Source of the DNA: an uncultured Acidobacteriota bacterium
GTDB taxonomy: Bacteria; Acidobacteriota; Vicinamibacteria; Vicinamibacterales; CAVVIG01
Length of the DNA stretch: 64,000 bases
Direction: 5' to 3'
NCBI GenBank assembly: GCA_963731545.1
Contig: CAVSWN010000004.1
Location: 1-64,000 of the forward strand
Of the stretch, positions 35,871-61,818 are shown piece after piece (the stretch's first letter is position 1; every line of letters starts with the position of its first letter). A program made the translations under genes and the position numbers. The notes beneath the pieces were generated by a model that had not been told where the DNA came from, searched no databases, and saw only the letters and a list, made by a program, of their open reading frames with translations.

Positions 35871-35930
35871 AGGCCCGCGCTACACCAGCGTGAGGGCAGT
35901 TCGTAGGGCGGCCCTTTCAGCGGCCGCCGA
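35858..35930. repeat. Inverted REP pair
   Basis: GCGGGCCTGAAAGGCCCGCGCTACACC … GTAGGGCGGCCCTTTCAGCGGCCGCC. Confidence 0.6.
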
Positions 35931-37250: not shown

Positions 37251-37318
37251 ATCAGCGCCGCGAGCGGCAATCGTCCGATCATCGCGCGAGTGTACGTATG
37301 GGCTTTTACCTGTGGAAA

Positions 37319-38476
37319 CGATGAATGGTCCTTTCGATTTTCAGCTGCGCACCCGCATGGTGTTCGGCGACGGCGCGCTGGCTCGGCTGGGGGATCTCGC
37401 GCGTGAGTTGGCGTTTTCGCGCACGCTCGTCGTCGCGGATCGCGGCCTCGTCGCGGCGGGGCACGTCGACCGTGCGATCGCGATCCTGGACGGACGCGTC
37501 GATCGCGACGTGCCGCTTTCACGAGTTTGGCGCCAATCCGGACGCGCGAATGGTCGAGGCCGGACGGCGCGTACGCCGCCGAGGGAGCGATTGATTCCAT
37601 CGTCGCGCTCGGCGGCGGCAGCTCGCTCGATTGCGCCAAGGGCATCAATTTCGTGCTTCACCAACGGCGGCACGATGCGCGACTACCGCGGGTTCGGCAA
37701 GGCGGCGCGGCCGATGCTGCCGTCGATCGGCGTCCCGACGACGGCGGGGACGGGCAGCGAGGCGCAGAGCTACGCGCTGATTTCGGATGCGGAGACGCAC
37801 GAGAAGATGGCGTGCGGCGATCCGAAGGCCGCGTTCCGGATCGCGATTCTCGATCCCGCCTTGACCGTGTCGCAGCCGCGGGAGGTGACCGCCGTCGCCG
37901 GCTACGACGCGATCTCGCACGCGGTCGAGTCGTACGTCACGACGCGGCGGACGCCGATGTCGAGCCTGTTCGCGCGCGAGGCGTGGACGCTGCTCGAGGG
38001 CCACTACGAGCACGTGCTGCGCGAGTCCACGCGACCTGGCGGCGCGCGGCGCCATGCTGCTGGGCGCGCACCAGGCCGGCGTCGCGATCGAGCAGTCGAT
38101 GCTCGGCGCCACGCACGCCTGCGCCAATCCGCTGACCGCGCGTCACGGGACGACGCACGGCGTGGCGATTGCCGTGATGCTGCCGCACGTCGTGCGCTGG
38201 AACGCCGGCCACGTCGGCGACTCGCTACGCGGACTTGCTGCGGACAGCCCGACGGATCCGCGGATGACGCAGTCGACGCGGCCAATCGCCTGGCCCATCG
38301 CCTCGAAGTGCTCGCGCGGGCCGGCGGCCTGCCGGCGACGCTGCAGCGACCTGGGCGTCCCGCGGGACGGATTGTCGGCCCTGGCCGCGGATGCTGCGAC
38401 GCAGTGGACCGGGACGTTCAATCCGCGGCCGTTCGATGCCGCCGCCGCGCTCGCGCTGTACGAGCGCGCGTTTTGA
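37319..38476 (+). CDS. Iron-containing alcohol dehydrogenase family protein; multiple frame changes
   Basis: MNGPFDFQLRTRMVFGDGALARLGDLARELAFSRTLVVADRGL… / IDSIVALGGGSSLDCAKGINFVL / …GVPTTAGTGSEAQSYALISDAETHEKMACGDPK… / …GTTHGVAIAVMLPHVVRWNAGHV…. Confidence 0.65.
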
Positions 38477-46378: not shown

Positions 46379-46880
46379 TTCGAACCAGCAGCGCCGCGAA
46401 CCCGGGCAGATACGCGACGATCCAGCTCACGAAGTGGGTCGCGTAGTCCCATCCGCGCGGGTCGAACGGAAACCAGATCCCCGAGATCGCGTAGAACCCC
46501 AGGCCTGATCCCGCCGCCGCGAGCACGCTGCGCACGAGGACGGCGCGAATGCTGTCGCGCTGCTCGAGCACGCGGCCGGTCAGGAGACCGAGGCCGACCC
46601 ACAACGCCACGAAGAGCACGAAGAGCGCCGAGTAGCCGATGAGCGGCTGCAGCAGGTAGAAGCCGCCGGTGGCTGCCAGGCCGATCGCGGCGCCGCCGGC
46701 CGCACCGGCGAGCGGCTTGCGCGCGGGCAGGCCGAGGCACAGGCCCACGGTGACGAACAGGATCGCGCCGTGCGCGAACCAATAGATCGGAATGCCGTGC
46801 GGCAGCACGTTGGCCCAGAGGTAGTCGCCGATCGTGCTGACCACGGCCGTGACGAGCGCGCCGATCAGCGCCGCTGTCAC
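46368..46880 (-). CDS. Polytopic membrane protein (hypothetical)
   Basis: 170-aa ORF, 4-5 hydrophobic helices. Confidence 0.45.
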   Translation of the reverse strand: MTAALIGALVTAVVSTIGDYLWANVLPHGIPIYWFAHGAILFVTVGLCLGLPARKPLAGAAGGAAIGLAATGGFYLLQPLIGYSALFVLFVALWVGLGLLTGRVLEQRDSIRAVLVRSVLAAAGSGLGFYAISGIWFPFDPRGWDYATHFVSWIVAYLPGFAALLVRTRP

Positions 46881-46937
46881 GCCGTCACCAAGTGTTCTTT
46901 TTCGTGTCTTCGTGTTTTCGTGGTTGCATTTTCGTCG

Positions 46938-48284
46938 TCAATCCGGCAATTCCTCGCGCTTCGGCTCGGGCAGCCAGTAGCTCGCCACGAGACCCAGCAC
47001 GTAGGCGGCCGTTCCGACAATCGCAGACGCGTACGCGAGCTTCGTCGGCAGGGTCGCGCCAGGCATGAGATCGGTCAACTGCGTCGTGAGCAGCGCGGCG
47101 GACGTGCCGAACATCCGTCCGCCGACGTTGGCGGCGAAGCTTTCTCCGGTCCCCCGGAGATGCGTGGGATAGACGCGCGGCAGGTAGTTCCCCCAGAAAC
47201 TGAACTGGCCGATCGTCGTGATTCCGTAGAAGAAGATCCCCAACTCGAGCATCGTCAGGCTGCTCGTGCCGGCCACGGCGAAGACGAACGGAACGATGAG
47301 CAGCCCAGGCACTTGAAAGAGCCGAACGAGCGTGCGGCGGCTTGCAATCCGAATCGCGAGAAACGCCATCAGGATGCGGCCGGTCAGCCCGCCGAACTCC
47401 TGGAACGACTGCACGGCGCTGACCGTCTGCTCGACCGCGGCGCGCGGCAGCCCGCGCAACTCCTCGAGGCCGGGCACGATGCGCGGCGCCTGCTGGATCG
47501 CGCCGAACGCCGCCGCGTACGCGGCGGCCATCATGATGGTCGTGACGATCGTCGTCGTGCGAAATTCCGGACGGAACAGCTCGCCGAAGCTCGGGCGCCT
47601 GAGCGTGCCCGCTCGCTTCTGCTCCATCCAGGTGGGCGATTCGGGCAGAAACGGCCGGACGAGGATGAGCGGGATCGCCGGGATCAGGCCGGACATCAGC
47701 GTGTATCGCCAGGCCTCGTGTCCACCGCGCACCTGCGGGCAGCAGATGGCCGTAGGTGACGGCGAGGTAGTAGCCGGCCGTGGCCATGATGCCGCCGATC
47801 GATCCCAGGGTCTGCGTGTAGCCGACGATCGCCTCGCGCTGTTTCGGGTTGGGGAACAGCTCCGAGAGCCAGGCGACGGCGGCCACGAACTCCACGCAGA
47901 CGCCGACGAAGGTGCAGCAGCGCCAGAAGAGCAGCCATCCGACCGAGGTCGCCAGCCCGCGCCATGAACGCGGACACCGCGTAGAGCAGGATGCTCCACA
48001 CGAGGACCGCGCGGCGGCCGAAGCAGATCGGTGAGATAGCCGCCGAGGAGCCCGAAGATGCCGCCGGCCACGGCGGGCACGTAGAAGAGGATGCCGACCC
48101 ACTCGTTGACCGCGGGACTGTTCGGCGGCACGCCCAGCAACTCGGCGAGGGCCGGCCGGGCGATGAGCGGCAGCATGAGCAGCTCGTACGAGTCGAACGC
48201 GAAGCCGATCGCGGCGATGACGACGATCACCCATTGGATGGGCGTCAGGCGCGGCGCGGCCGCGTCGGCGTGGGCGGGCGTCAT
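46938..48284 (-). CDS. MFS transporter, frame changes
   Basis: ORFs 46938..48284 and 46885..48234 alternate coding-like hydrophobic segments (…IQWVIVVIAAIGFAFDSYELLMLPLIARPAL… / …VGWLLFWRCCTFVGVCVEFVAAVAWLSELFPNPKQRE…). Confidence 0.55.
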   Translation of the reverse strand: MTPAHADAAAPRLTPIQWVIVVIAAIGFAFDSYELLMLPLIARPALAELLGVPPNSPAVNEWVGILFYVPAVAGGIFGLLGGYLTDLLRPPRGPRVEHPALRGVRVHGAGWRPRSDGCSSGAAAPSSASAWSSWPPSPGSRSCSPTRNSARRSSATRRPWDRSAASWPRPATTSPSPTAICCPQVRGGHEAWRYTLMSGLIPAIPLILVRPFLPESPTWMEQKRAGTLRRPSFGELFRPEFRTTTIVTTIMMAAAYAAAFGAIQQAPRIVPGLEELRGLPRAAVEQTVSAVQSFQEFGGLTGRILMAFLAIRIASRRTLVRLFQVPGLLIVPFVFAVAGTSSLTMLELGIFFYGITTIGQFSFWGNYLPRVYPTHLRGTGESFAANVGGRMFGTSAALLTTQLTDLMPGATLPTKLAYASAIVGTAAYVLGLVASYWLPEPKREELPD

Positions 48285-51200
48285 GGCGTCACCGTCGACA
48301 GCCCCGCGGCCTTCATTCGCGCGTTGAACGCGACGAGGTCAACGGTCTTGAGCGTCGACCAGCGCGTCATCGCGCGCGTGGCGGCGGCGCGCGCGTTCGC
48401 GATCGCCGTCATCTGCACGGTGGTCGGTTTCACGTCCGCGCCCTGCAGGATGTTCATGACGCCGGCCAGCGTCGCGCTCGCACCGGTCAGCGTGTCGGGT
48501 GGGGCGGGCGGGGCGCCGGCACCGCGGCCTCTGCCTCCTCGCGCCAAAGGCGCCGCCGTCGGCGAACGGGGCGCCTTCGATCGCGTTGATCTTCGCTTCG
48601 AGATCCGCGAGCACCTGGACTGCGCCACCGGTGACGCGCGGCTTCAGATTGGCCAGCTGATCGCGAACCTTCTGCGCCTCACGCGCCGCAGCCTGCGCGT
48701 TCAGCGCGCCGTAGTACATCGCTTTCGACTGCGTGTAGATCTGCTGCATCGTCAGCGGCGGCGTCTTCACGCGCGGGTCCTGCTTCACGGTCATCGGCTG
48801 CGAGTAGCGTCTTGCCGTTGACCGTGAGCTTGACCGTGTACTGCCCCGGGTTCACCCACGGCGTCGTCGGCGACGGGACCGTGTTGTAGCCGATGGCGGC
48901 GATCGGCAGCGTCGGGACCGCCGCATGCGGCCGCCGCCATCGAGCGGCTGATAGTGCAAATCCCACGTGAAGCGATGCATGCCCGCCGCTGCCGACAGCG
49001 CGCTCAGCGGACGGAACCAGTACAGCGGAACGTTGATCGTCGCCGGGTTCGGTTTGAACACTTCGTCGGTGCTCGAGTAGCGGCGCACGAGCTTGCCGTC
49101 GCTGCCGGAGATCTCGAGCGTGACCGGACCGGTCGCCGCGGACTTCAGGTAGTAGTTGATGATCGCGCCCTCGGGCGGATTCGGCGCCGTCGGCTCGTCG
49201 GGCGGCAGCGGCGTGTCGGTGTTCATGTTCCAGCGCACGCGATACGCGGTCTGCGGCTTGAAGAGATACGCGTCCGCTCGGCTAGGCCGTCGCGTTCCGT
49301 CGTCGGACAGCTCCGCGATCTGCCGCAGCGGCGTGATGTCGTCGAGAATCCAGATGCCGCGCCCGTGCGTGCCGACGACGAGGTCGTCGTCTTTGATGAT
49401 CAGATCGCGGACCGAGGACGCGCGCCATGTTCAGTCGCAGCGACTGCCAGTGGTCGCCATCGTCGAACGACACGTAGACCTGCGTCTCCGATCCGGCGAA
49501 GAGCAGACCCTTCCGCTTCGGATCCTCGCGGACGACGCTGACGGGCGCGCCGCCAGGGATGCCGTTGACGATCTCCTTCCACGTCTTGCCGCCGTCGTGC
49601 GTCCGGTAGATGTGCGGGTTCATGTCGTCGAGCCGCAGCGTGTTCACCGCTGCGTAGGCCGTCAGCGGATCGAAGCGGCCCGGATCGACGATGAACACCT
49701 TCATGAAGTCGGTGACCTGCGGCGGCGTGACGTTGGTCCAGTGCAGGCCGCCGTCGGCGGTCGTGTAGATCACGCCATCGTCGGTGCCGATCCAGATGCG
49801 GTTGATGTCGCGATACGACGGCCCGATCGTGTAGATCACCTGCGCGCCGATGGTGCCGCGCTCTTTGCGCGTCACGCGCGGGATGTACGTGCCGACGCTC
49901 TTCGGCACGTCCCATTTTTCGCGCGTCAGGTCCGGGCTGATCTGCTTCCAGTTGATGCCGCCGTCGATGCGTCTTCCACAGCACGTTGTTGCCGTAGAAG
50001 AGCGCGCGCGGATCGACCGTCGAGAAGACGACCGGCTGCGTGCGCACGGTGCGATAGGCGGGCCTGCCTGCCGTGGCGACGCCGCAGCGCCCGCGTCCGC
50101 TTCGAACGGGGCCGACATCCGACACCTGACCCGTGCGCCGGTCGTATCGCGTGACCTTGCCGCCATAGACGAGATCGGGATCGAGCGGATCGGGCGCGGC
50201 GTAGCCGTACTCTTCGACGCCGACCGGATGCCAGTCGCGGAAGGTGATCTGGCCGTCGTTGCCGCGGCTCGCGACGCACACCGATCCGCTGTCCTGCTGT
50301 CCGCCGCACACGCGATACGGAAACGCGTTGTCGGCCATCACGTGATAGAGCGCCGCGGTCGGCTGCGTGTACCACGAGCTCCAGGTCTGGCCGCCGTTCA
50401 GCGTGACGACCGCGCCCTGATCGATCACCAGCAGCATGATGTTCGGATCGTTCGGGTTCCACCAGATGTTCTGGTTGTCGTCGCCGCCGGGCGCGCCCTT
50501 GAACGGCACGAACGTCCTGTCCGCCGTCCGTGGACTTGAAGCTGACGATGTCGGTGACGATCAGCGTGTCGGGATCCTTCGGGTGCACGTGCGGCACGAC
50601 TTCGTTGATCCGGGCGGTCGGGCGCGTGTCGGTGGTGATGCGCGTCCAGGTCTCGCCCGCATCGTCCGAGCGATAGATGCCGGTTCCGTCGCCGGCCGCT
50701 TCGAGCGTCGCGAAGACGCCGCCGCGGATTGCTCGGCGAGACGCCGATCTCGGCGTTGATGATGCCGGGCGGCAACCCTTGCGTCAGCGGCTTCCACGTC
50801 GTGCCGCCGTCGGTCGACTTGAAGATGCCGCCGTTGGTGCCGTTCCACGCCGCGTTCTCCCACGGACCCTGCCGCTGCTCCCACAGCGTGGCGTAGACGA
50901 TGTCGGGGTTCGACGGATCGATGTCGACGTCCTTGCCGCCGGTGTCGACGTTCTTGAAGAGGACGCGCTGGAAGCTCTGGCCGCCGTCGGTCGAGCGGAA
51001 GATGCCGCGCTCCTCGTTCGGGCCGTACGGATGGCCGAGCGCGGCGACGAACAGGCGATTCGGGTTCCGCGGATCGATGGCGAGCTTGGGAATCTGCTGC
51101 GCGTCGCGCAGGCCGAGATGCGTCCACGTCGCGCCGGCGTCGGTGGACTTGTAGATGCCGTCGCCGACCGAGAGATCGGGGCGCGGCAGTCCTTCGCCGG

Positions 51201-51544
51201 TGCCGACGTAGAGGATGTTCGGATCGGAGGGCGCGACCGCGACCCAGCCGATCGATCCGGTCGGCTGGTCGTCGAAGATCGGCTTCCACGTGCGGCCGGC
51301 GTCGGTGGTCTTCCAGACGCCGCCGTTGCACATGCCGATGTAGAAGGTGTACGGATGGCTCGGATGTCCCGCCGCCGCCTTGGTCCGGCCGGCGCGGAAG
51401 GGCCCGATGTTGCGCCAGCGCATCTCGGCGAAGAGGCGTCGGGCTGATCTGCGGTGTCTGCTGCGCGGGGAGGGAGATCGAGAACACCCCGCCGAGCAAC
51501 AGCATGAGGAGAAAGGCAAGAAGGGCGCGATGAATTCGCTTCAC
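48281..51544 (-). CDS. Large secreted BNR/Asp-box repeat protein (sortilin/glycosyl-hydrolase-like beta-propellers); many frame changes
   Basis: Signal MKRIHRALLAFLLMLLLGGVFS; Asp-box repeats WKTTDAGRTW, FRSTDGGQSF, FKSTDGGTTW, YRTHDGGKTW, YTTADGGLHW, VTLNGGQTW spread over ORFs 50425..51519, 49400..50509, 49282..50166, 48852..49238, 48281..48794. Confidence 0.6.
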
Positions 51545-51589
51545 GTCGTCACCTTTGGCGTTTTATGAAGCGTCTAGCTTATCGCGAAG

Positions 51590-51749
51590 GGGTTCCGCAG
51601 GGCTAAAGCCCTGCGCCACGTTCTACTGGTGTTGTGTTCGAGGTGGTGCCCAGTACTAGGCCGCTTAGGCGGACCCATACAGCGCATCGTCGAGTGCTAG
51701 TCGCGTTCGCCTGTCAGAAGTAGCCAGGGCTTGAGCCCTGCGAACGCGG
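51590..51749. repeat. REP elements flanking RAYT gene (left side)
   Basis: GCAGGGCTAAAGCCCTGCGCCACGTTCTAC … GTAGCCAGGGCTTGAGCCCTGCG. Confidence 0.7.
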
Positions 51750-51799
51750 AGACTGCGGCGTGGCTTCAGCTGCGATCGCACGGTCGAGCGCTAAGGCGC

Positions 51800-52290
51800 T
51801 TCATGGCCACGCTCGTCTTCGCCGCCCTGGCCGTCTCCGCCACGCTGACGTCGGTTTCCAACGTATTCAGTGACCTTCTGCACATTCGAGCGCGCGATCG
51901 CGATTCACGACCGCGGCCGTCGTGGATCCAGCGAGATCGCAGTTGCTGCAAAGTGCCGATGCCTTTCGGTTTGGAATTCCTGCGTACACTTTCATGCCCG
52001 ATCACGTCCACATACTCGCTCTCGGAGAGTCGCTCGACTCCGATCTCGAGCGTTCGTCGGCGAATGAAGCAGAAGACCGGATTTGAGTTCAAGCAGGCGC
52101 GTCGCGCGCCGCTGTGGCAGGAAGGCTACTACGATCGCATTCTGCGGAACGACGAGCAGACGATCGTCGTGTCGCGAGGTACATCCTGGACAATCCAGTG
52201 CGAGCTGGGCTGGCGGAAGACGTTCGACAGCTATCCATTCTCGGGCTCGAACAGATACACGCATGGAAGAACTGGCGGATGCGCTCCAAT
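51800..52290 (+). pseudogene. REP-associated tyrosine transposase (RAYT, IS200/IS605 TnpA-like), frameshifted
   Basis: …FRFGIPAYTFMPDHVHILALGES (HxH motif) / …KQKTGFEFKQARRAPLWQEGYYDRILRNDEQ (catalytic Y region) / …VSRYILDNPVRAGLAEDVRQ in three frames. Confidence 0.65.
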
Positions 52291-52326
52291 CGCAGGGCTG
52301 AAGCCCTGCGCCACGCTCTACTGCGG
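52291..52326. repeat. REP element (right flank of RAYT)
   Basis: CGCAGGGCTGAAGCCCTGCGCCACGCTCTAC. Confidence 0.7.
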
Positions 52327-52449
52327 TGCGAGAGCCGCGGTCGAGGGCGTTATACTACGCGATCATGTCTGCGGGTCCTTCTACCACGCTCCATCGCATC
52401 GGTATCGTCTGCGGCTGTCACGGCTTCTCGGGAGGCGCTCGACGCCTGG

Positions 52450-53487
52450 GTGCGCGAAGTCGTCGACTGGCATTTCGATCCGGGAACGGGATGTCCGTTC
52501 TGGCTCGACTTCGCCGCGAAGGCCGGCTGGGATCCGCGGCGCGACGTGAAAACGTTTGCCGACCTCAACAAGTTCGGCGCGTTTCAGGACGAGTGGCTGC
52601 GTGGCGGGCCGGTTCAGCGCTGGATTCCCAAGGGCCTCGCGGGCAAGCCGGTGTTCGTTTTCGAAACCGGCGGGACGACCGGCGTGCCGAAGACGCGCGT
52701 GGCCTTCGAGGATTTCCGAACCGACTACGAACTGTTCAGCGAGACGCTGCCGGACGAGTTCTTCCCCAAGGGATCGAACTGGCTGATGCTCGGACCGTCG
52801 GGACCACGGCGTCTGCGGCTCGCGGTCGAGCACCTCGCGCAGTATCGCGGCGGCATCTGTTTTTGCGTCGATCTCGATCCGCGCTGGGTCATCAGGCTGA
52901 TCCAGAAAGGCTGGGGCGATCACCTGCAGGCGTACAAGGACCACGTGATCGACCAGGCGATCACGATTCTCGGGGCAGGACACGACATCCACTGCCTGTT
53001 TGCGACGCCGAAGCTGCTCGAATCGCTGGCGCTCCGGCTCGAGGCGAATGGCAAGACGATTCGCAAGGCCGGGATTACGGGAATTTTTTCGGGCGGCACC
53101 GAGTTTACGCCCCAATGGAACCGTTTCGCGCACGAAGAGCTCCTCGACGGCGCGTACATGACGCCCACCTACGGCAACACGCTGATGGGTCTGGCCGCGA
53201 GCGCGCCGAGCGGTCCGCACAACGACTACAAGATCACCTACTACGCGCCGCAGCCGCGCGCGGTGATTGAAGTCGTCGATCTCGACCACCCGGACCGCAT
53301 CGTCGAGTACGGCCAGACCGGACGCGTGAAGTTGACGACGCTGACGAAAGAGTTCTTCATGCCGGGCTTCCTCGAGCGCGACGAAGGCGAGCGCGAGCCG
53401 CCGTACGAAAAGTTCCCGTGGGATGGCATCAGCGGTGTGCGGCCGTTCCGCGCATTTGCGGCAACGACCACAGTGGGCGTGTACTAG
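52450..53487 (+). CDS. Adenylate-forming enzyme of the PaaK / F390-synthetase / LuxE (acyl-protein synthetase) / CapK superfamily; start uncertain
   Basis: …KPVFVFETGGTTGVPKTRVAFEDF… (AMP-binding core motif), ~346+ aa. Confidence 0.55.
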   Translation: MREVVDWHFDPGTGCPFWLDFAAKAGWDPRRDVKTFADLNKFGAFQDEWLRGGPVQRWIPKGLAGKPVFVFETGGTTGVPKTRVAFEDFRTDYELFSETLPDEFFPKGSNWLMLGPSGPRRLRLAVEHLAQYRGGICFCVDLDPRWVIRLIQKGWGDHLQAYKDHVIDQAITILGAGHDIHCLFATPKLLESLALRLEANGKTIRKAGITGIFSGGTEFTPQWNRFAHEELLDGAYMTPTYGNTLMGLAASAPSGPHNDYKITYYAPQPRAVIEVVDLDHPDRIVEYGQTGRVKLTTLTKEFFMPGFLERDEGEREPPYEKFPWDGISGVRPFRAFAATTTVGVY

Positions 53488-53558
53488 AACAAATGCAACC
53501 ACGAAGACACGAAAACACGAAGAAGAACGATAAGGTTCGGTTTGCGGCTTTAGAACAC

Positions 53559-54987
53559 ATGATTCATCTTCCTGTTCTACGCTGGGGTCAGTCCTACACC
53601 TCGCTCGAGGTCGACGAGGTCGTGCACTTTGCGACCGGGGAGCCGATCGCGAAGGTCAGCCGCGCCAACGGCGGCCTGATTCAGCGCGACAAGCGCAAGG
53701 CCTGGCGTGCGCGGGACGTGCTTCGTGAGATTCCCATCGACGAGTTGATCGCGCGAGTCGGCCAGGCGGGCGAGCTGTACACGAACGGCACGCTGCCGAT
53801 GGGCGACGGCACGCAGACGCCGGACGAGTTCGTGCGCGCGCAATCGGCGTCCACGGGCCTTCCCGAGCGCATGTGCCGCGCGAACATGAAGAAGAACGCG
53901 TTCGTGCTGACCGAGATGCGTTCGATTCTCACGTCGCTGACCCGCGGCCTCTCGTTCGACGTGCTGTCCCAGGGGCTACGGCGAGGAGCGCGGCGTGCCG
54001 ATCAGCTTTCAGCCGCAGAGTCCGGTCGTCGGCCTGGTGCTGCCGTCGAATTCGCCGGGCGTGCACACGCTCTGGCTGCCGGTGATCCCGCTGCAGGTCG
54101 GCCTCGTCCTCAAGCCCGGGCCGCAGGAACCGTGGACGCCGTATCGGATGGCCGAGGCGTTTTTTGCCGCCGGCATTCCGCGCGAGGCGATCTCGATCTA
54201 TCCGGGCCTTGGCGACGTCGGCGCCGCGGTGCTCGAAAGCTGCGGCCGAAGCATGATTTTCGGCGGCACCGCCACCGTGGATCGGTATCGAGGCAATCCC
54301 GCCGTGCAGGCGCACGGCCCCGGATTCTCGAAAATTCTGCTCGGCGACGATCAGGTCGATCGGTGGGAACAGTATCTCGACGTGATGGTCGACAGCGTGT
54401 TCCTCAACAGCGGACGCGGCTGCATCAACTGCTCCGGCATCTGGGCGAGCCGGCACACCCGCGAGATCGCCAACGCGATCGCGGAACGGTTTGCCTCCGT
54501 GCAGCCGCTGCCGCCCGAAGATCCCGAGGCCAGCCTGGCGGCCTTCACGGTTCCCGGCGTCGCGGACGCGATCTCGGCGGAGATCGAGAACGATCTGGAG
54601 ACGCCTGGCGTCACCGACGTGACGGCCACGCTGAGGAGCGGTCCGCGGCTGATCAAGACCGGCCGGGCCGACTATCTGCTGCCGACGGTGATTCATTGCG
54701 AGTCGCCGCGCGTCGGCGATTGCCACCAAGGAGTACATGTTTCCCGTTCGTGACGGTCGTGCAGTGCCCGGAATCCGACGATGCTCGGCGCGATCGGGCC
54801 GACGCTGGTGGGCAGCGCGATCACCTGCAACCCGGCGTTCCGCCGCGGGCTGATGGACGCCGTGCACATCGACCGGCTGAACCTGGGGCCCGTGCCGACC
54901 ACGCAGTTGAACTGGCGGCAGCCGCACGAGGGCAACCTGATCGATTTCCTGTTCCGGGCGCGCGCCTTTCAGACGGCGGACTTATGA
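53559..54987 (+). CDS. Aldehyde-dehydrogenase-superfamily protein (LuxC-type acyl-CoA reductase-like); frame changes ~53990 and ~54740
   Basis: MIHLPVLRWGQSYTSLEVDEVVHFATGEPIAKV… / …PVVGLVLPSNSPGVHTLWLPVIPLQVGLVLKPGPQEPWT… NSGRGCINCSG (catalytic Cys motif) / …MLGAIGPTLVGSAITCNPAFRRGLMDAVHIDRLNLG. Confidence 0.55.
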
Positions 54988-56344
54988 AGATCCTGTCCAT
55001 TACCGCCGGCGCCGCGGGGATGTATTGCGGCAGTTGCTCGCGCGACAACGCGCTCGCGGTCGAACTGATCGCGCGCGGCCACGACGTCACGCTGCTGCCG
55101 CTCTACACGCCGACCAATCCCGACGAAACCAACGTCAGCCGCGATCGCGTGCTGTTTGGCGGCATCAGCATCTACCTGCAGCAGCACATGCGCGCTGTTC
55201 CGCAAGACGCCGCGATTCCTGGATCGGCTGTGGGATTCGCCGGCGGTGATCCGATCGTTGGCCAGCCGCTCGATCTCGACCGACCCGAAGCTGCTGGGCG
55301 ACCTCACCGTGTCGATGCTGGAAGGGGACCGCGGCGTGCTGCGCAAGGAGTTCGACAAGCTGCGGGCCTGGCTCGCCGACGAGCCCGTGCCCGACCTGGT
55401 GAACATTTCGAACTCGCTCCTCATCAGCCTGGCGCGGCCGCTGCGCGACGCGCTGAAGCGGCCGATCTGCTGCACGCTGCAGGGCGAGGACCTGTTCCTC
55501 GACGATCTCATCGAGCCGTATCGAGGCAAGGCGATCGAGTTGATTCGGCGGCAGGTCGTGGACGTCGATCGGTTCATCGCGGTCAGCGACTACTACGTCG
55601 CGCCGATGGCGCGGCTGCTCAACGTCGCGCCGGAGCGCATCGACGTGGTGCCGCTCGGGATCAACCTCGACGGCTACAAGGTCAGGCAGGCTGCCGACGA
55701 CGACGTTTCGCGTCGGATATTTCGCGCGCATCGCGCCCGAAAAAGGTCTGCACGTGCTGGCCGAGGCCTATCCGATCTTCCGCCGGCGCACGGGCAACGC
55801 GCCGGTGCGGTTCGATGCGGCCGGGTACATCTCGCGCGCGCACGAGGGGTATCTCGCAACCATCAAGAGCGGTCTGGAGAAGGCGGGCGTCGCGAGCGAC
55901 TTCACGTATCACGGGGCAGTGGATCGCGCGGGCAAGCTGGCGTTCCTGCAGACGCTCGACGTGCTGTCGGTGCCGACGCCGTACGACGAGCCGAAGGGCG
56001 TGTTCCTGCTCGAGGCGCTGGCCAGCGGCGTGCCGGTGGTGCAGCCGCGGCGCGGGGCGTTTCCGGAGATCGTCGAGAAGACCGGCGGCGGGCTGCTGGT
56101 CACTCCGGATGATCCCCAGGCGCTCGCCGACGCGCTGTACAAGCTGTGGAACGATCGCGCGCTGGCGCGCGCCCTCGGCGAGCGCGGAGCGGTCGGCGTC
56201 CGGCTGCACTACAGCATTCAGCAATCGACCGATCGGCTGCTCGAGGTGTACGAATCGCTGCATGGATCGCCACGAAGCGACGCAAAGGCACGACAAGGTC
56301 TCAAGTCCTGGTTTCGTGACTTCGTGTTCTCGTGGCTGACCTGA
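54984..56344 (+). CDS. GT4-family glycosyltransferase; ATGA-coupled to upstream ALDH-like gene; frame changes ~55190, ~55720
   Basis: MKILSITAGAAGMYCGSCSRDNALAVELIARGHDVTLLPLYTP… / …GYFARIAPEKGLHVLAEAY…EPKGVFLLEALASGVPVVQPRRGAFPEIVE…GLLVTPDDPQALADAL. Confidence 0.7.
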
Positions 56345-57008
56345 TGCTCGAAGTTGCATCTCTCAAAACAGTACCCAACCCCGCGCGGACCGCTGACAGT
56401 GCTGTCCGACGTGTCGTTCACGCTCGCGCCGGGCGACGTGGCGGCGGTGACAGGGCCGTCGGGCAGCGGCAAGAGCTCGCTGCTGTACATCCTGGGCGCG
56501 CTCGAGCCGCCCTCGTCTGGAACCGTGACGATCGACGGCGCCAATCCCTTCGCGCTCAGCGCGACCGAGATCGCCGCGTTTCGAAACCGATCGATCGGAT
56601 TCGTCTTTCAGGATCACTGTCTCCTGCCGCAGCTCACGCTGCTCGAGAACGTGCTGATTCCGACGCTGGTCCCGGGGCCGGACGGCGACGAACGCGCGCG
56701 CGCCATGCAGCTGGTCGATCGCGTCGGGCTCGCCGATCGCATCGACCATCGGCCGGGTGAGCTGTCGGGCGGCGAGCGGCAGCGCGTCGCCATCGCACGC
56801 GCGCTCGTGCGGAACCCGAAGCTGGTGTTGTGCGACGAGCCCACCGGCAACCTGGATCGCGGCGCCGCCGACGGCGTCGCCGCGCTGCTGCTCGACCTCG
56901 CCGCCCGCGAACGCACGACGCTGATCATCGTCACCCACAGCGCGTCGACTGGCCGAGCGATGCCCGATTCGATTCGAGATCGTAGAGTGCCAGTTGCGGC
57001 GTGCGTGA
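56344..57008 (+). CDS. ABC transporter ATP-binding protein (LolD/MacB/FtsE-type); frame changes near start and ~56960
   Basis: …TGPSGSGKSSLLYILGALE… LSGGERQRVAIARAL…LVLCDEPTGNLD; C-terminus in other frame …THSASLAERCPIRFEIVECQLRRA*. Confidence 0.75.
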
Positions 57009-57125
57009 AACCACGCGAGGTCACGGTGGAAGAACCGAGGTCACTGTCATCGAGGATCGCAACCAGATCGGAACCGTGTCCTCGTTCGTGCTCGTGTCAC
57101 CGTGGTAGTGCATTTGTAACGGACA

Positions 57126-58103
57126 ATGCGGACGCGCCTACTCGTTCGCCGGAGCCTGCGCTACTACTGGCGCACGAATCTTGCCGTCGTGATCGGCGTC
57201 GCGACCGCCGTCGCCGTGCTGGCGGGCGCGTTGCTCGTCGGCGATTCGGTGCGGGGAAGCCTGCGCGACCTCGTGCTCCAGCGTCTGGGCCGCACCGATC
57301 GCGTCGTGCTCTCGTCGGGATTCTTTCGCGAAGCGCTCGCCGCCGACCTTCAGTCGGATCCGGGATTTCAGCAGACCGGCAGCACCGTGGCTCCGCTGAT
57401 CGCGATCCCAGGCACAGTCACCGATCAGGAAACGGGCCGCCGCGTCTCGCGCGTGCAGGTCTACGGCGTGGACGATCGGTTCTGGCAATTCCACGGCGTG
57501 ACTGGCGTGCGCGGTCCCGGTGGCCGCGAGGCGCTGCTCAGCCGTGCGCTCGCCGCCGACATCGGCGCCGTGCCGGACCACGCGGTGCTGGTGCGCGTCG
57601 AGCGGCCGTCGGCGATTCCCGTCGAGTCGCTGCACGGGCGGAAAGAGGATCTCGGCCGCACGCTGCGCCTGACGGTGCGCGCCGTCGTGGACGCGGAGCA
57701 GATGGGCGATTTCACGCTGCAGGCGCAGCAGGGCGACGTGCGCGCGGTGTTCGTGCCGCTTCGACGGTTGCAGGACGACCTCGACGTCGCCGGCCGGGCC
57801 AACGCGTTGCTGGTGGCCGGCGCTGCGCCTCTCGATGATCTGATCCGGCGGCGATTCGCGCTCGAAGACGTCGGGTTGTCGATCCGCGGTGCAGACGAAG
57901 TGATCGTTGAAGGCGCCGCCGGGCTGCTCGATGCGCCGCGCGCGCGCGCGGTCGAGGAGGCCGCGACGGCGACGGGCCTGACGTCGCACACCGTGCTGAC
58001 CTACCTGGCGAACACGATGAAGAGCGGCGATCGCGAGGTGCCGTATTCGCTGGTCAGCGCGCTGGATTTGAGCGCGATCCTGCCCGACGGACCGCGATCC
58101 TGA
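57126..58103 (+). CDS. FtsX/MacB-like ABC permease, segment 1 (stop codon contributed by partial REP)
   Basis: MRTRLLVRRSLRYYWRTNLAVVIGVATAVAVLAGALLVG… N-terminal TM + periplasmic domain. Confidence 0.5.
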   Translation: MRTRLLVRRSLRYYWRTNLAVVIGVATAVAVLAGALLVGDSVRGSLRDLVLQRLGRTDRVVLSSGFFREALAADLQSDPGFQQTGSTVAPLIAIPGTVTDQETGRRVSRVQVYGVDDRFWQFHGVTGVRGPGGREALLSRALAADIGAVPDHAVLVRVERPSAIPVESLHGRKEDLGRTLRLTVRAVVDAEQMGDFTLQAQQGDVRAVFVPLRRLQDDLDVAGRANALLVAGAAPLDDLIRRRFALEDVGLSIRGADEVIVEGAAGLLDAPRARAVEEAATATGLTSHTVLTYLANTMKSGDREVPYSLVSALDLSAILPDGPRS

Positions 58104-58104
58104 A

Positions 58105-59100
58105 ATGGTCGCGCTACAACAGCCTGGCGCTCCGTCGATCGTCGTCAATGATTGGACGGCGCAACGACTCGGCGTTCGCGTCGGCGATCCGGTTTCACTC
58201 GACTACTACGTGTGGGAAGAACCGGGCCGGCTGGCGACGCAGTCTGCGGAATTTCGCGTCGCGGCGATCGTGCCGATTGCCGGGCTCGCGGCCGATCGGG
58301 ATCTCGCGCCCGTGTATCCCGGAATCACGGACGCCAGGACGCTGTCCAACTGGGATCCGCCGTTTCCCGTCGATCTTCGCCGGATGGGCCGCGACGATGA
58401 GGATTACTGGGACAAGTACCGCACGACGCCGAAGGCGTTCATTCCGCTCGAGGTCGGCCAGCGGCTCTGGGCGTCGCGGTTTGGCGATCGCACGTCGATG
58501 CGCCTGGCGCCGCGCGACGGCGAGCTGACAGCCGAGACGCGCGATCGCTACGCGGCAGCGCTCCGCGCGCGTCTCAACCCGGCCGAGCTCGGGCTGATGG
58601 TGCGGTCGGTGCGCGACGAGAGCCTCCGTGCGTCGCGAGGCGCCACCGATTTCGGCGAGTACTTCTCGTACTTCAGCACCTTTCTGGTGGCGTCGGCGTT
58701 GCTTCTGGCGGTGTTGTTCTTTCGCCTGACTGTCGAGCAGCGCGCTCGCGAAACCGGACTGCTGCGCGCCGTCGGTGTGCCTCCCGCCCGCGTGCGGCGA
58801 ATGTTTCTCGCGGAAGGTCTCGTGCTGGGTGGCGTCGGCGCCGTTATCGGTGTCGCCGGTGCGGTCGCATACGGCGCGCTGATGATGTACGGGCTGCGCA
58901 CGTGGTGGTCCGGCGCGGTCGGGACGACGGCGCTGCGGCTGCATGTCGCGCCGGCGTCGCTCGCGGCGGGCGCGGCGGGCGCGCTCGTGGCGGCGATGAT
59001 TTGCATCTGGTGGACGCTGCGCAGATTGTCGCGGGTATCGGAGCGAAGTCTGCTGGCGGGGAACGTGTCAGTAGCGCGGCCCTTTCAGGGCCGCGATCGC
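58105..59100 (+). CDS. FtsX/MacB-like ABC permease, segment 2 (first FtsX 4-TM domain)
   Basis: …PSIVVNDWTAQRLGVRVGDPVSL… FSYFSTFLVASALLLAVLFFRLTVEQRARETGLLRAVGVPPARVRRMFLAEGLVLGGVGAVIGV; reads into REP pair at 59068-59128. Confidence 0.5.
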
Positions 59101-59128
59101 GGGCCTAAAAGGCCCGCGCTACAACTGC
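59068..59128. repeat. Inverted REP pair located between permease segments 2 and 3
   Basis: GTCAGTAGCGCGGCCCTTTCAGGGCCGCG … GCGGGCCTAAAAGGCCCGCGCTACAACTGCC. Confidence 0.75.
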
Positions 59129-59147
59129 CCGGCCGTCGGCGGCGAGC

Positions 59148-60494
59148 GTGTGTGCCCTCATCGCGCTCGCGCTCGTCGCCGCGGGCACGTTCGCCGGACT
59201 CGATCGCACCGCGGCGTTCTTCGGGTCGGGCAGCTTGCTGCTCATCGCGTGCCTGTGCTTCGTCGCGTCCAGACTCCGCCGGCCACCGCGCTCGGCGCTC
59301 GAAGGGCATGGCTGGCGGCCGATCTCCCGCATCGGCGTCCGCAACGCGGCGAATCGGCCGGGCCGCAGCGTGCTCGCCATTGGCGTCATCGCGTCGGCGA
59401 CGTTCCTGCTCGTCGCGGTCGGCGCGTTCCGCCGCGAAGGGCCGATCGCGCACGATCGCCACTCGGGCACGGGCGGCTACGGCGTCCTCGTCGATCTGCT
59501 GCTGCCGCTCGTCGCCGATCCGAACAGCCGCGACGGCCGCGAGGCCCTCGGACTCGAACCCGGCGAGTCGCTGCACATCGAACCGTTTCGCGTGCTCCCA
59601 GGAGACGATGCGAGCTGCCTGAATCTGTACGAGGCGACAAACCCGCGGGTGCTGGGCGTCAGCAAGGCGTTCGTCGACGCCGGGCGCTTCGCGTTTCAGT
59701 CGTCGCTGGCGTCGACCGACGCCGAGCGCGCCAACCCGTGGCTCCTTCTCAATCGGGATCTCGGCGCCGGCGTCGTGCCGGCGATTGCCGACGCCAACTC
59801 GATGACCTACGTGCTCCACAAGAAGCTCGGTGACGAGCTGCAGGTGGCGGGAGCGGGTCAGCCAGTCCGGGTGCGGCTCGTCGCCGCCCTCGCCGACAGC
59901 ATCTTCCAACGCGAGTTGCTGATCGCGGACGCACACTTCGTCCGCCAGTTTCCGGAGGAGGAAGGGTTTCGGTTTCTGCTGATCGACGGTCCGACGGCTC
60001 CGTCCCCGGCGCGGGGACGGAGCGTCGCGATCGAGCAGGGCGCCGCCGATCTCGGCGCGGACGCCGCGGGCACGTCGGCCCGCCTCGCCGAGTTTCATAC
60101 CGTCGAGAACACCTACCTCGCGACCTTCCAGGCGCTCGGCGGTCTGGGCCTGCTCGTCGGCACGCTGGGGCTCACCGCCGTCGTGCTGCGCAACGTGCTC
60201 GAGCGGCGGCGCGAACTGGCGCTGCTCGGCGCCGTCGGGTATGGGCGCTCCTCGATGTTCACCATCGTCATCTCGGAGAATCTGCTGCTGCTGGCCTGGG
60301 GTCTGGCAATCGGGACCGCGTGTGCCCTCGTGGCGATTGCGCCGGCTGCGCTCGAGCGCGGCGGCCGGCTTCCCGTCACGACCACGGTGGGCCTGTTGTT
60401 GTTTGCGGTGTTTCTCGCGGGCCTGTTATCGTCTGTAGTGGCAACGCGCGCGGCGCTGGGCACGCCGCTGCTTGAAGCGCTGCGATCGGAGTGA
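59148..60494 (+). CDS. FtsX/MacB-like ABC permease, segment 3 (second FtsX domain)
   Basis: GTG start; …[73 protein letters not shown]…. Confidence 0.55.
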
Positions 60495-60498
60495 ACGA

Positions 60499-61818
60499 AT
60501 GATATCGACTCTTGGTATGTGCGCCCGTCATACGTCTCTCGTCGTTTTCATCCTTACCTTCTGCGGTATTGCTGTCTCCACGGTGTCCGCCGAAAACTGG
60601 CCGCAGTGGCGCGGCCCCTCGGCCAACGGCTTGAGCGGCGAGAAAGGCTTGCCGGTCCGCTGGTCGAAAACCGAAAACGTGACGTGGAAGATCGACATGC
60701 CGGCCTGGTCGGGATCGACGCCGATCATCTGGGGCGACCGCATTTTCCTGAACGTGGCCCACGATCTGAAGCAGCGCGAGGGCGACAACCTCTTCCTGTG
60801 GTCCATCGATCGCACCAAGGGCACCGTGCTGTGGAAGCGCCCGCTGAGCGGCGGGAATCACCAGGAGCGGAAGCAGAACATGTCGTCGCCGTCGCCGGTC
60901 ACCGACGGCAAGCGCGTCTGGGTCATGACCGGCACCGGGATCCTGAAAGCCTTCGACTTCGACGGCAAAGAGCTGTGGAGCCGCGACATTCAGAAGGACT
61001 ACGGCCGCTTCGGGTTGAACTGGGGCTACGGGTCGTCGCCGCTGCTCGTCGGCGACGCGTTGTACGTGCAGGTGCTGCACGGCATGAAAACCGACGATCC
61101 GTCGTACGTGCTGCGCATCGACGCCGCGACCGGCAAGACGCTGTGGCGCATGGAGCGGCCGACGCAGGCGCGCTTCGAGTCGCCGGACTCGTACACCACG
61201 CCGGCGTTGCTCAAGTACGGCGCGACGTCCGAGATTGTCGTCACCGGCGGCGACGCGGTCACCGGCCACGATCCCGCGACCGGCAAGGAACTGTGGCGCT
61301 TCAACGGGCTCAATCCGTACAACGACGGGAGCTATCGCATCGTGGCGTCGCCGGTCGTGCACGGCGACTTGATCGTCGTCCCCTCGCGCGAGCGCCCGAT
61401 GGTGGTCGTCAAGAGCGGCGGGCGCGGCGACATCAGCAAGTCGCATGTCCTCTGGTCGTTCGACAACGGACCCGACGTGCCCACGCCGGTCACCGACGGC
61501 ACCTACGTGTACGTCGTCAACGACCGCGGCATCATGTGGTGCCTCGACTTGAAGACGGGAAAAGAGATCTACGGCCGCCAGCGTCTGCGTTCGGCGACGT
61601 ACAGCGGTTCGCCGGTCCTGGCGGATGGGAAGATCTACGTCACGAACGAAGATGGCGTCACGGTCGTCGTGAAAGCGGGCCCGAAATTCGAGGTGCTCGC
61701 GGAAAACGATTTCGACGACTACACGCTCAGCTCGCCCGCGGTGTCGGAGGGGCAGATCTTCATTCGCACCGCGACGCAGCTGTACTGCCTCGGGAAGAGA
61801 ACCGCAGCGGCGCGGTGA
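60499..61818 (+). CDS. PQQ-like beta-propeller repeat protein, paralog 3 (intact, signal peptide)
   Basis: [84 protein letters not shown]…. Confidence 0.8.

Follow-up and report, generated by a model that had tools for sequence, protein, structure and literature searches.

The 64,000-nucleotide stretch analysed here (the window; contig CAVSWN010000004.1 of an uncultured Acidobacteriota bacterium) carries five genes on its + strand between 52.3 and 60.5 kb, which putatively encode, in this order, an adenylating enzyme, a protein of the aldehyde dehydrogenase (ALDH) superfamily, a family 4 glycosyltransferase (GT4), an ATP-binding cassette (ABC) ATPase and an FtsX/MacB-type permease. Judged by its sequence, the pair formed by the first two genes belongs to the little-studied EhpF/EhpG family. 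On balance the pair probably represents an EhpF/EhpG-type two-protein carboxylate reductase working without coenzyme A (CoA) or a carrier, which is accompanied by an iron-containing alcohol dehydrogenase (Fe-ADH) and, in the lineage of the window, by the GT4 and the exporter. Homology of the two proteins to EhpF and EhpG, the pattern of active-site residues and the conserved linkage were read directly from the gene sequences. The original prediction for this DNA had interpreted the pair as a couple of acyl-protein synthetase and acyl-CoA reductase of the LuxE/LuxC type. This is partly supported, as the class of mechanism appears to be right, with an adenylating enzyme presumably feeding an ALDH-like cysteine enzyme, but the assignment to the Lux families is wrong.

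Organisation of the locus

The window was compared with related loci numbered L001 to L091. L006 and L012, the latter being the closest public genome (an Acidobacteriota metagenome-assembled genome, MAG, of the MFD series), served as the main references for the gene models, which are as follows.

52365..53487, + strand: EhpF-like truncated ANL adenylating enzyme, about 373 aa (phmmer against PDB, BLASTP against Pantoea EhpF)
53559..54987, + strand: EhpG-like ALDH-superfamily protein, about 475 aa, proposed acyl-thioester reductase (tblastn of intact orthologues of 474-475 aa, Pfam Aldedh)
54984..56344, + strand: GT4 glycosyltransferase, about 440 aa (Pfam Glyco_transf_4, Glycos_transf_1, Glyco_trans_1_4)
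56344..57008, + strand: LolD/YbbA/MacB-type ABC ATPase, about 221 aa (Pfam ABC_tran 122 bits, tblastn, junctions read directly)
57126..60494, + strand: duplicated FtsX/MacB-type permease, about 1,120-1,145 aa, one gene (Pfam MacB_PCD and two FtsX domains on three frame fragments)

The gene content, order and strand given in the original prediction were borne out by Pfam and by direct reading. Searches of Pfam with the window proteins returned a weak AMP-binding match, Aldedh, Glyco_transf_4 and Glycos_transf_1, ABC_tran, MacB_PCD and two FtsX domains. The predicted motifs TGGTTGVPK (within FETGGTTGVPK of the adenylating enzyme) and NSGRGCINCSG (ALDH-like protein) were likewise found, as were both predicted stop/start overlaps: in TTATGA the ALDH stop overlaps the GT4 start (ATG at 54984, TGA at 54985-54987), and TGATG at 56342-56346 joins the GT4 stop to the start of the ABC ATPase gene. 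The ALDH gene begins at 53559, directly after the end of the adenylating gene at 53487. A GTG at 52450, previously taken as the first start codon, lies inside the adenylating gene, for which ATG 52365 is the probable true start. An Rfam scan of the whole window gave no family match and hence no riboswitch clue, and a promoter and terminator scan of 51.4-62 kb detected nothing exceeding the shuffled expectation.

The adenylating enzyme

In a phmmer search of the PDB sequences the adenylating protein aligned in full length (residues 16-362 of 371) with EhpF (3HGU/3L2K; E=6e-40), and BLASTP against the Pantoea EhpF gave an identity of 30% (E=4e-43). The protein comprises 371-373 aa. Its sub-threshold Pfam AMP-binding match stops at profile position 371 of 384 and AMP-binding_C was not matched in Pfam, fitting the lack of the ANL C-terminal subdomain. 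The P-loop (S/T)GGTTGxPK is present, and the motifs GGTTG.PK, DPRWV, GGT, YG.T and ERD are invariant between the family of the adenylating protein and EhpF. The C-terminus of the family is an invariant GVY, the window protein ending in ...RAFAATTTVGVY. Bera et al. (Acta Cryst D66:664, cited in PMC3175449) reportedly described EhpF in 2010 as an ANL enzyme without the C-terminal domain. They are also reported to have suggested a joint action of EhpF and EhpG, in which phenazine-1,6-dicarboxylate is adenylated and then reduced to the 6-formyl compound. The corresponding hydroxymethyl group is present in griseoluteic acid (PMC3175449). As proposed for EhpF, the adenylating protein of the window would activate a carboxylate by adenylation.

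The enzyme had been placed in the LuxE/PaaK/F390/CapK superfamily by the original prediction, of which the adenylate-forming motif stands whereas the family membership does not, EhpF being the closest relative. Searches with LuxE, PaaK and CapK models were run, and no such model of Pfam or NCBIfam matched at E<=1, so that membership in these families was rejected. At this threshold the LuxE HMM (PF04443) also failed to match the L006 orthologue, EhpF, the Burkholderia homologue and four distant members. The only NCBIfam matches were to DVU_1553-family and fatty-acid ligase models (E 0.002-0.11), and the label "PaaK-like" was met solely as an automatic JGI name. In LuxE, Cys364 of the C-terminal motif TRxxKGCxLS carries the acyl group (PMC9157457). 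This motif is absent from the adenylating protein and no cysteine is invariant in the alignment of its family. Due to the missing conserved cysteine a LuxE-style acyl-enzyme on the adenylating protein seems unlikely.

The ALDH-like partner

The ALDH-like protein shares an identity of 27% with the Pantoea EhpG over about 90% of its length (BLASTP, E=2e-31) and appears as a divergent member of Pfam Aldedh (43-55 bits). Its size of about 475 aa and the location of its catalytic cysteine in NSGRGCINCSG had been predicted correctly. An alignment of the active site of 31 EhpG-like proteins, spanning Acidobacteriota, Planctomycetota, Proteobacteria, Actinomycetota and Archaea, revealed N164 (oxyanion), C288 (catalytic), E391 (NAD-ribose) and H455 (C-terminal) to be invariant. 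In all 31 proteins the ELGGK segment with the general-base glutamate (Glu268-equivalent) is deleted and an invariant G-P-G is found instead. Loss of the ELGGK glutamate blocks thioester hydrolysis and is a hallmark of the CoA-acylating and reductive ALDH branches (PMC12041015). The lack of this water-activating residue therefore fits thioester reduction, not hydrolysis.

The identification of the protein as LuxC did not hold, its relative being EhpG. The LuxC HMM (PF05893) matched neither the window fragments nor the L006 orthologue; across the family it gave sub-threshold matches to 5 of the 31 members (best E 3.8e-4), with EhpG scoring 18.5 bits against a cut-off of 21. Furthermore, Asn164 and Glu391 are kept in the family, whereas LuxC retains only the catalytic cysteine and has lost the asparagine and both glutamates (PMC9157457, PMC12041015). 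LuxC membership was rejected. In a PDB profile search with the EhpG-like alignment generic ALDHs took the first ranks, and the best 60 matches did not include LuxC.

Relatives of the pair on plasmids

A tblastn search with the ALDH-like protein (E<1e-10) of 72,556 plasmids returned only 19 records, the ehp plasmids included. In five of the six plasmid records inspected an EhpF-like gene (about 360 aa) is located immediately upstream of the ALDH gene. These pairs belong to the Pantoea ehp cluster, to phenazine clusters of Burkholderia ubonensis and E. coli, to Streptomyces goshikiensis, where they are found beside genes for a DAHP synthase and PabB, and to the haloarchaeon Halalkalicoccus, where a solute symporter, an IclR regulator and a short-chain dehydrogenase/reductase (SDR) are encoded nearby. 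In Pantoea agglomerans ehpF is part of the D-alanylgriseoluteic acid cluster and ehpG (annotated as "aldehyde dehydrogenase family protein") directly follows. A 366-aa protein encoded after the ALDH gene in Streptomyces NBC_01426 is not EhpF-like. The EhpF-like family is small, consisting of 290 clusters at 50% identity (E<1e-30), and no relevant publication on two-component carboxylate reductases, or on EhpF/EhpG in other than phenazine pathways, emerged from a literature search.

Compared with EhpF/EhpG of P. agglomerans Eh1087, both window proteins are homologous in full length and similar in size, and in both cases the adenylating gene comes first. The truncated ANL enzyme ending in GVY and an ALDH which keeps the asparagine and the cysteine but has lost the general-base glutamate are also shared. 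In contrast, phz genes do not occur near the window pair. Its partners are a Fe-ADH, a major facilitator superfamily (MFS) transporter, the GT4 and a MacB-type ABC transporter, whereas those of the ehp genes are a methyltransferase, an SDR and a D-Ala ligase. The window clade is chromosomal with 66-97% identity over two phyla, while ehp is a plasmid-borne secondary-metabolite gene. The pair would accordingly belong to the EhpF/EhpG family but occupy a novel chromosomal setting, unconnected with phenazines and with new partners, and its substrate almost certainly differs from phenazine-1,6-dicarboxylate.

Distribution and gene linkage

Each of the proteins obtained at least 8,000 database matches, the best 120 of which are all at least 81-83% identical. 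Among species-representative genomes at least 594 relatives were found; the best 80 of these belong to Acidobacteriota and Planctomycetota, with 66-97% identity of the first protein. The acidobacterial carriers are Vicinamibacteria, Thermoanaerobaculia, Bryobacterales and Blastocatellia, the planctomycete carriers Pirellulales and Planctomycetaceae. The pair is adjacent in 66 of the 72 assessable loci of the two phyla. The occurrence of the individual genes, counted for GT4, ABC and FtsX only in loci with at least 6 kb of downstream sequence, was as follows.

ALDH directly downstream of the adenylating gene: Acidobacteriota 44/50 (elsewhere in the locus in the other 6); Planctomycetota 22/22
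GT4 in the locus: Acidobacteriota 20/45; Planctomycetota 1/14, a score that is probably due to a partial match (the best candidate in full length has 36% identity)
ABC ATPase in the locus: Acidobacteriota 30/45; Planctomycetota 0/14
FtsX permease in the locus: Acidobacteriota 28/45; Planctomycetota 0/14

In Acidobacteriota the genes were encountered in the arrangements aden-ALDH-GT4-ABC-FtsX, aden-(DUF4399)-ALDH-ABC-FtsX, GT4-aden-ALDH-ABC-FtsX and aden2-GT4-aden-ALDH...ABC-FtsX (aden, adenylating gene; aden2, its second copy). The predicted linkage of GT4 and ABC/FtsX to the pair hence recurs in this phylum in several gene orders and, since it survives rearrangement, suggests a functional connection of these genes with the pair in Acidobacteriota. 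As GT4, ABC and FtsX are missing elsewhere, they appear to be an add-on and not part of the core. Synteny of the pair is conserved across two phyla and only the pair is universal; the complete set of five genes occurs as an operon in some Acidobacteriota only.

Between Acidobacteriota and Planctomycetota (L012-L042 versus L043-L090) the adenylating proteins share 66-77% and the ALDH-like proteins 57-69% identity. Such a high cross-phylum identity suggests either horizontal transfer of a two- or three-gene module or an unusually strong constraint.

Two variants of the locus were observed besides. Seven loci (L028, L029, L031, L032, L035, L040, L050; at about 11040-11640 in each) encode a DUF4399 protein, whose signal is lipoprotein-like (…LVACGG), between the adenylating and the ALDH gene. 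They form a Vicinamibacterales subgroup without GT4 but with ABC-FtsX, and carry genes for a DUF6526 protein and a pterin-4a-carbinolamine dehydratase upstream. In a Blastocatellia MAG (L079:4166-6638) and another acidobacterial MAG (L091:1017-3473) a second EhpF-like paralogue of 63% identity directly precedes the GT4 gene, ahead of the normal pair (aden2-GT4-aden-ALDH). It could indicate that two carboxylates, or a dicarboxylate, are activated.

Fe-ADH as a putative third step

In 13 of 17 assessable Planctomycetota loci a Fe-ADH gene is located 14-207 nt downstream of the ALDH gene on the same strand. In Vicinamibacterales, orthologues (47-70% identity) were also detected at a distance of 2-6 kb from the pair (L001, L015, L017, L025, L044 and L008). 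The window itself encodes a Fe-ADH and, between this gene and the pair, two further proteins of interest:

37330..38473, + strand: Fe-ADH (tblastn with the Fe-ADHs of L001, L008 and L086, 46-55% identity)
46380..46880, - strand: small polytopic membrane protein, about 167 aa (tblastn of p168 of L006, 75% identity)
46941..48284, - strand: MFS transporter of the metabolite/aromatic-acid:H+ symporter type, frameshifted (tblastn of the L006 MFS, Pfam MFS_1 and Sugar_tr)

Among solved structures the Fe-ADH comes closest to Zymomonas ADH2, methanol dehydrogenases, 1,3-propanediol oxidoreductase and FucO, and the AdhE-like chain 9LDL matches both the ALDH-like protein and the Fe-ADH. The type of Fe-ADH hints weakly at a substrate that is small and polar, as opposed to a C14 fatty acid. 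The best reading of the pathway would be acid to acyl-AMP, to acyl-S-Cys, to aldehyde and finally to alcohol.

In Planctomycetota the pair and the Fe-ADH gene form a tight three-gene operon, seen in L045, L052-L054, L059, L062, L068, L069, L071, L074, L077, L086 and L090. Two conserved planctomycete genes, one of them upstream (about 184 aa) and the other encoding about 236 aa, showed no family match.

In two database proteins the EhpF-like domain is fused to another enzyme, namely to a class-III aminotransferase in P0223 (824 aa, several Streptomyces RefSeq WP_ entries) and to a Zn-dependent alcohol dehydrogenase in P0269 (725 aa). Since each fused partner acts on aldehydes, these fusions support an aldehyde as the product. 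Each could provide a route within a single protein, P0223 leading from an acid to an amine and P0269 to an alcohol, provided that an EhpG partner is encoded nearby.

Glycosyltransferase and transporters

The GT4 is a GT-B enzyme with a Glyco_transf_4 N-domain and a Glycos_transf_1 C-domain (Pfam, window fragments and L006). Its EX7E motif is intact and reads EPKGVFLLE, and an unusual MYCGSC motif is conserved at the N-terminus. All of its database annotations are generic.

Searches of NCBIfam assigned the L006 orthologue of the ABC ATPase to LolD (238 bits) besides YbbA, FtsE, MacB and DevA, and gave weak ADOP, DevC and LolCE matches for the permease. The transporter resembles the type VII ABC systems (MacB, LolCDE, DevBCA, YbbAP) in combining a LolD/YbbA/DevA-like ATPase with an FtsX/MacB_PCD permease, but differs in that the window permease is a single duplicated protein of 1,145 aa. 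A membrane-fusion or TolC partner was not among the neighbour families conserved across 80 loci, no dedicated search having been made. The type of transporter suggests a lipidic or amphiphilic cargo.

The best NCBIfam model for the MFS transporter was TIGR00895 (aromatic acid:H+ symporter; E=4e-26), with 92 bits against a cut-off of 418. Its gene is conserved upstream of the pair in L001, L004, L005, L006 and 13 scanned loci and accompanies the pair in the Vicinamibacterales clade to which the window belongs. The membrane protein of about 167 aa is hydrophobic throughout, is always paired with the MFS gene and has no match in Pfam or NCBIfam.

Frameshifts and integrity of the operon

None of the five genes is a single open reading frame (ORF) in the window. 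Alignment to L006 and L012 revealed about 10 frameshifts in 8.1 kb, 1-3 per gene; the frame plot of GC content at third codon positions (GC3) switches frame inside genes and intact orthologues align over two to four frames. An apparent 1-nt insertion near 52388 is the one frameshift of the adenylating gene and hides its probable start ATG 52365; from the equivalent ATG, L012 can be read in a single frame as MSAGPSTTSIAS... The ALDH gene has three frameshifts (about 53971 and a compensating pair at 54715-54790), the tblastn alignment of orthologues splitting over frames 3/1/3/1. Two were found in each of the other genes: at about 55190 and 55690 in the GT4 gene (frames 3/1/2 with the GT4s of L006 and L001), at about 56362 and 56950 in the ABC ATPase gene, and at 58064-58123 (approximately) and 59115-59133 in the permease gene, to which the 1,145-aa orthologue of L006 aligns in frames 3/1/3. 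Unrelated neighbours are broken likewise, with the MFS gene in four frames, a BNR-repeat protein in five, a PQQ propeller in two and the Fe-ADH, frameshifted near 38020, in two.

In the regions 46380-61818 and 35933-38473 nearly every gene examined is frameshifted, about once per 0.5-0.8 kb, with amino acid identity still being high.

The DNA aligns to L012 with 93% identity and about 1.2% gap openings, whereas the first protein is 97% identical, a difference which indicates purifying selection. Together with the indels in all neighbours, this argues for assembly indels rather than decay, which are the most likely cause of the frameshifts. The window looks like an unpolished long-read assembly, in which ORF-based annotation would be fragmented; the MFD MAGs are long-read assemblies. 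That the frameshifts are genuine and the operon of this organism is decaying into pseudogenes, as about 10 frame changes within 8.1 kb might suggest, is highly improbable considering the equal indel density in all neighbouring genes examined, the lack of any premature stop caused by a substitution, the amino acid identity of 83-97% to orthologues at a DNA identity of 93%, and the nearest public genome (an MFD MAG), which is fragmented in the same manner at other positions. If the frameshifts are assembly errors, the operon is therefore probably intact in the organism.

Proposed mechanism and comparison with known systems

The truncated ANL enzyme would use ATP to form the acyl-adenylate of a carboxylic acid. 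The acyl group would then pass, directly from AMP, to the catalytic cysteine of the ALDH-like partner, which lacks the water-activating glutamate and could reduce the thioester with NAD(P)H to the aldehyde. The co-located Fe-ADH would reduce the aldehyde to a primary alcohol, so that the whole module would resemble a CoA-free counterpart of an acyl-CoA synthetase combined with AdhE. In the Vicinamibacteria-type lineage a carboxylate-type MFS transporter stands beside the module and a translationally coupled GT4 gene is followed by the MacB/FtsX-type ABC transporter; here the product or a derivative of it would most likely be glycosylated and then expelled to the envelope or the medium. We infer the direction of the reaction, the direct transfer from acyl-AMP to cysteine, the roles of the Fe-ADH, GT4 and transporter and the class of substrate from gene content and homology.

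As to this class, a rough split makes a small (hydroxy)acid the leading candidate, if short of an even chance. An aromatic acid comes behind it as a possible but less likely substrate, acids of other kinds are unlikely and a fatty acid is the least likely. A small polar acid is thus slightly favoured over an aromatic acid. The fatty-acid-type substrate of the original prediction found no support. The Fe-ADH resembles short-chain alcohol and diol dehydrogenases, and those relatives of the pair that are characterised or have an annotated context are found in aromatic-acid pathways.

The pair follows the same logic as LuxE/LuxC (PDB 7XC6), in which a truncated ANL enzyme activates the acid, an ALDH-type cysteine carries the acyl group and NADPH serves to reduce it to the aldehyde. 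However, the pair falls outside these families by HMM and lacks the LuxE Cys364 motif, for which a direct transfer from acyl-AMP to cysteine would substitute. Its ALDH-like protein keeps the asparagine and the NAD-binding glutamate, both lost in LuxC, and neither a LuxD thioesterase nor a luciferase is encoded with it. AdhE in combination with an acyl-CoA synthetase similarly converts an activated acid to the alcohol by a non-hydrolysing ALDH followed by a Fe-ADH. The window system differs in presumably activating the acid as an adenylate without CoA, in consisting of three separate proteins and in belonging to another ALDH subfamily. Carboxylic acid reductases (CAR; A-PCP-R) and fungal Lys2 likewise reduce a free carboxylate with ATP and NADPH to the aldehyde via an acyl-adenylate. 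In contrast to these, the window pair has no carrier domain, no need for a phosphopantetheinyl transferase and no SDR-type R domain, its reductase having the ALDH fold; PP-binding and NAD_binding_4 were not matched in the pair proteins (Pfam).

Several points weigh against the proposed reductase with its additional partners. The window Fe-ADH gene lies 14 kb upstream of the pair, from which a 5.7-kb non-ribosomal peptide synthetase (NRPS) insertion missing in L012 separates it. The clues to the substrate conflict, with relatives in aromatic-acid pathways on the one hand and a short-chain-type Fe-ADH on the other. The acceptor of the GT4 cannot be inferred, as its PDB matches (SPS-like, MshA, PimA) cover only the sugar-donor domain. 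GT4, ABC and FtsX do not occur in the loci of Thermoanaerobaculia, Bryobacterales or Planctomycetota and may be an independent envelope unit. An AlphaFold2 model of the ALDH-like protein, for which the input consisted of 25 sequences all at least 83% identical, had a pLDDT of 45.6, which was too poor for an analysis of the pocket, and was not used for fold searches. The origin of the frameshifts in assembly errors is unprovable without reads. In vitro reconstitution is not known for any enzyme of this clade or for EhpG.

Alternative explanations

The most serious alternative concerns the partners rather than the pair itself: GT4, ABC and FtsX could constitute an independent envelope or exopolysaccharide unit which merely adjoins the pair in some Acidobacteriota. 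The absence of ABC/FtsX from all 14 Planctomycetota loci and of the block from Thermoanaerobaculia and Bryobacterales, the generic GT4 annotations and the finding that GT4 and ABC stay together even 3-8 kb away from the pair (L016, L021, L022, L039, L042) make this possible. We nevertheless regard it as somewhat unlikely, since the linkage persists in at least four gene orders over Vicinamibacteria, Blastocatellia and "Marinacidobacterales", the ALDH/GT4 and GT4/ABC stop-start overlaps are found in L006, L013 and L025 as well as in the window, and ABC-FtsX directly follows the ALDH gene where GT4 is missing (L028-L038, L040, L050). Alternatively, the pair, the MFS transporter as importer and the Fe-ADH might reduce an imported aromatic or xenobiotic acid, which the GT4 and ABC/FtsX would glycosylate and expel as a means of detoxification. 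All relatives with an informative context do lie in chorismate- or aromatic-acid pathways, the best model for the neighbouring MFS transporter is an aromatic acid:H+ symporter family, and the haloarchaeal pair has genes for a solute symporter, a regulator of the IclR type and an SDR as neighbours. Taking into account, however, that the MFS score is far under the family cut-off, that the type of Fe-ADH favours small aliphatic substrates, that aromatic catabolic genes are not linked and that a cross-phylum identity of 66-77% is unusual for a detoxification enzyme with variable substrates, such a role seems unlikely.

Less probable still is a LuxE/LuxC-type reductase producing a long-chain fatty aldehyde or alcohol, from which the GT4 would make an alkyl glycolipid for export by a DevBCA/MacB-like ABC transporter. 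The pair shares the architecture of LuxE/LuxC (an ALDH-like cysteine enzyme together with an ANL enzyme that has no C-terminal subdomain), and the faint LuxC matches of EhpG and five of the 31 family members, the matches of ATPase and permease to DevA, DevC, LolD and YbbA and the frequent transport of lipids or glycolipids by type VII ABC systems would agree with such a reading. Yet LuxE matched no tested member and LuxC not the window-type protein. TRxxKGCxLS is missing from a family which ends in GVY and has no conserved cysteine, the asparagine and the Glu399-equivalent lost in LuxC are retained, and ordinary ALDHs were the best PDB matches. Moreover, the linked Fe-ADH resembles dehydrogenases of C1-C4 alcohols and diols, and no thioesterase or LuxD-like gene is linked. 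Finally, the system might run in the oxidative direction, with Fe-ADH and ALDH oxidising an alcohol or aldehyde, the cysteine thioester being transferred to AMP and the adenylating enzyme forming ATP from AMP and PPi. The missing hydrolytic glutamate would suit any thioester-conserving chemistry, Fe-ADHs of the DhaT, FucO and Mdh types are often catabolic, and we estimate the overall reaction to be near equilibrium at standard conditions. This direction is very improbable, though, because the only member with pathway evidence is reductive (carboxylate to hydroxymethyl in griseoluteic acid), cellular ATP/AMP, PPi and NAD(P)H ratios favour reduction by about 20 kJ/mol according to our own rough estimate, and the pair is linked to a biosynthetic GT4.

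Other features of the window

Directly upstream of the adenylating gene there is an insertion of about 695 bp (51596-52323), flanked by a 33-bp direct repeat, which neither L012 nor L006 has. Within this insertion are three hairpins resembling repetitive extragenic palindromic (REP) elements (GCAGGGCTNAAGCCCTGC, which does not recur elsewhere in the window) and a degraded IS200-like Y1 transposase (RAYT-type) with a PDHVH motif. Its stitched translation matched Pfam Y1_Tnp with 28.3 bits; searches of PHROGs and Pfam with the unstitched ORFs of the insertion gave no match, only the hand-stitched translation matching Y1_Tnp. Two further segments, 38466-44214 and 34626-35938, are absent from the 93%-identical L012. 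The former holds an NRPS fragment (39.2-43.3 kb, - strand; AMP-binding, AMP-binding_C, PP-binding, Condensation), the latter an MFS_3 "secretion effector" transporter (34.5-35.9 kb), and the two segments jointly resemble a small NRPS island specific to the strain.

Three paralogous genes for PQQ_2/BamB-like beta-propellers are located at 35933-37230 (-), 44955-46250 (+) and 60526-61800 (+). In both phyla such genes are found on the flanks of the operon, with up to five per 10 kb in some related loci, a pattern that may merely reflect the abundance of the family. The window also contains an IS21-like element in which one ORF reads through integrase and IstB signals (2894-4087, +), a bacterial eRF1-like gene of baeRF family 10 (12384-13526, -) and a second, unrelated GT4 glycosyltransferase (14345-15619, -).

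Implications

EhpF/EhpG-type reductases, characterised only within one phenazine pathway, would be the simplest known ATP-dependent carboxylate reductases, consisting of two small soluble proteins. Requiring neither a phosphopantetheine carrier nor CoA, they would be attractive for biocatalysis. The phyla carrying the module are abundant in soil and water and poorly cultured, and the recurrent linkage to Fe-ADH, together with GT4 and a MacB-type exporter in Acidobacteriota, provides a concrete metabolite hypothesis, which is well supported but does not amount to a new principle. In its most far-reaching form, to which we give a rather low probability, the pair and the Fe-ADH would constitute a widespread CoA- and carrier-free route from acid to alcohol, a kind of split AdhE driven by adenylation, and in Vicinamibacteria the alcohol would be glycosylated by the GT4 and pumped out by the MacB-type transporter. 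If true, this would point to a so far undescribed type of glycoside or glycolipid, either secreted or located in the envelope, in one of the very abundant soil phyla.

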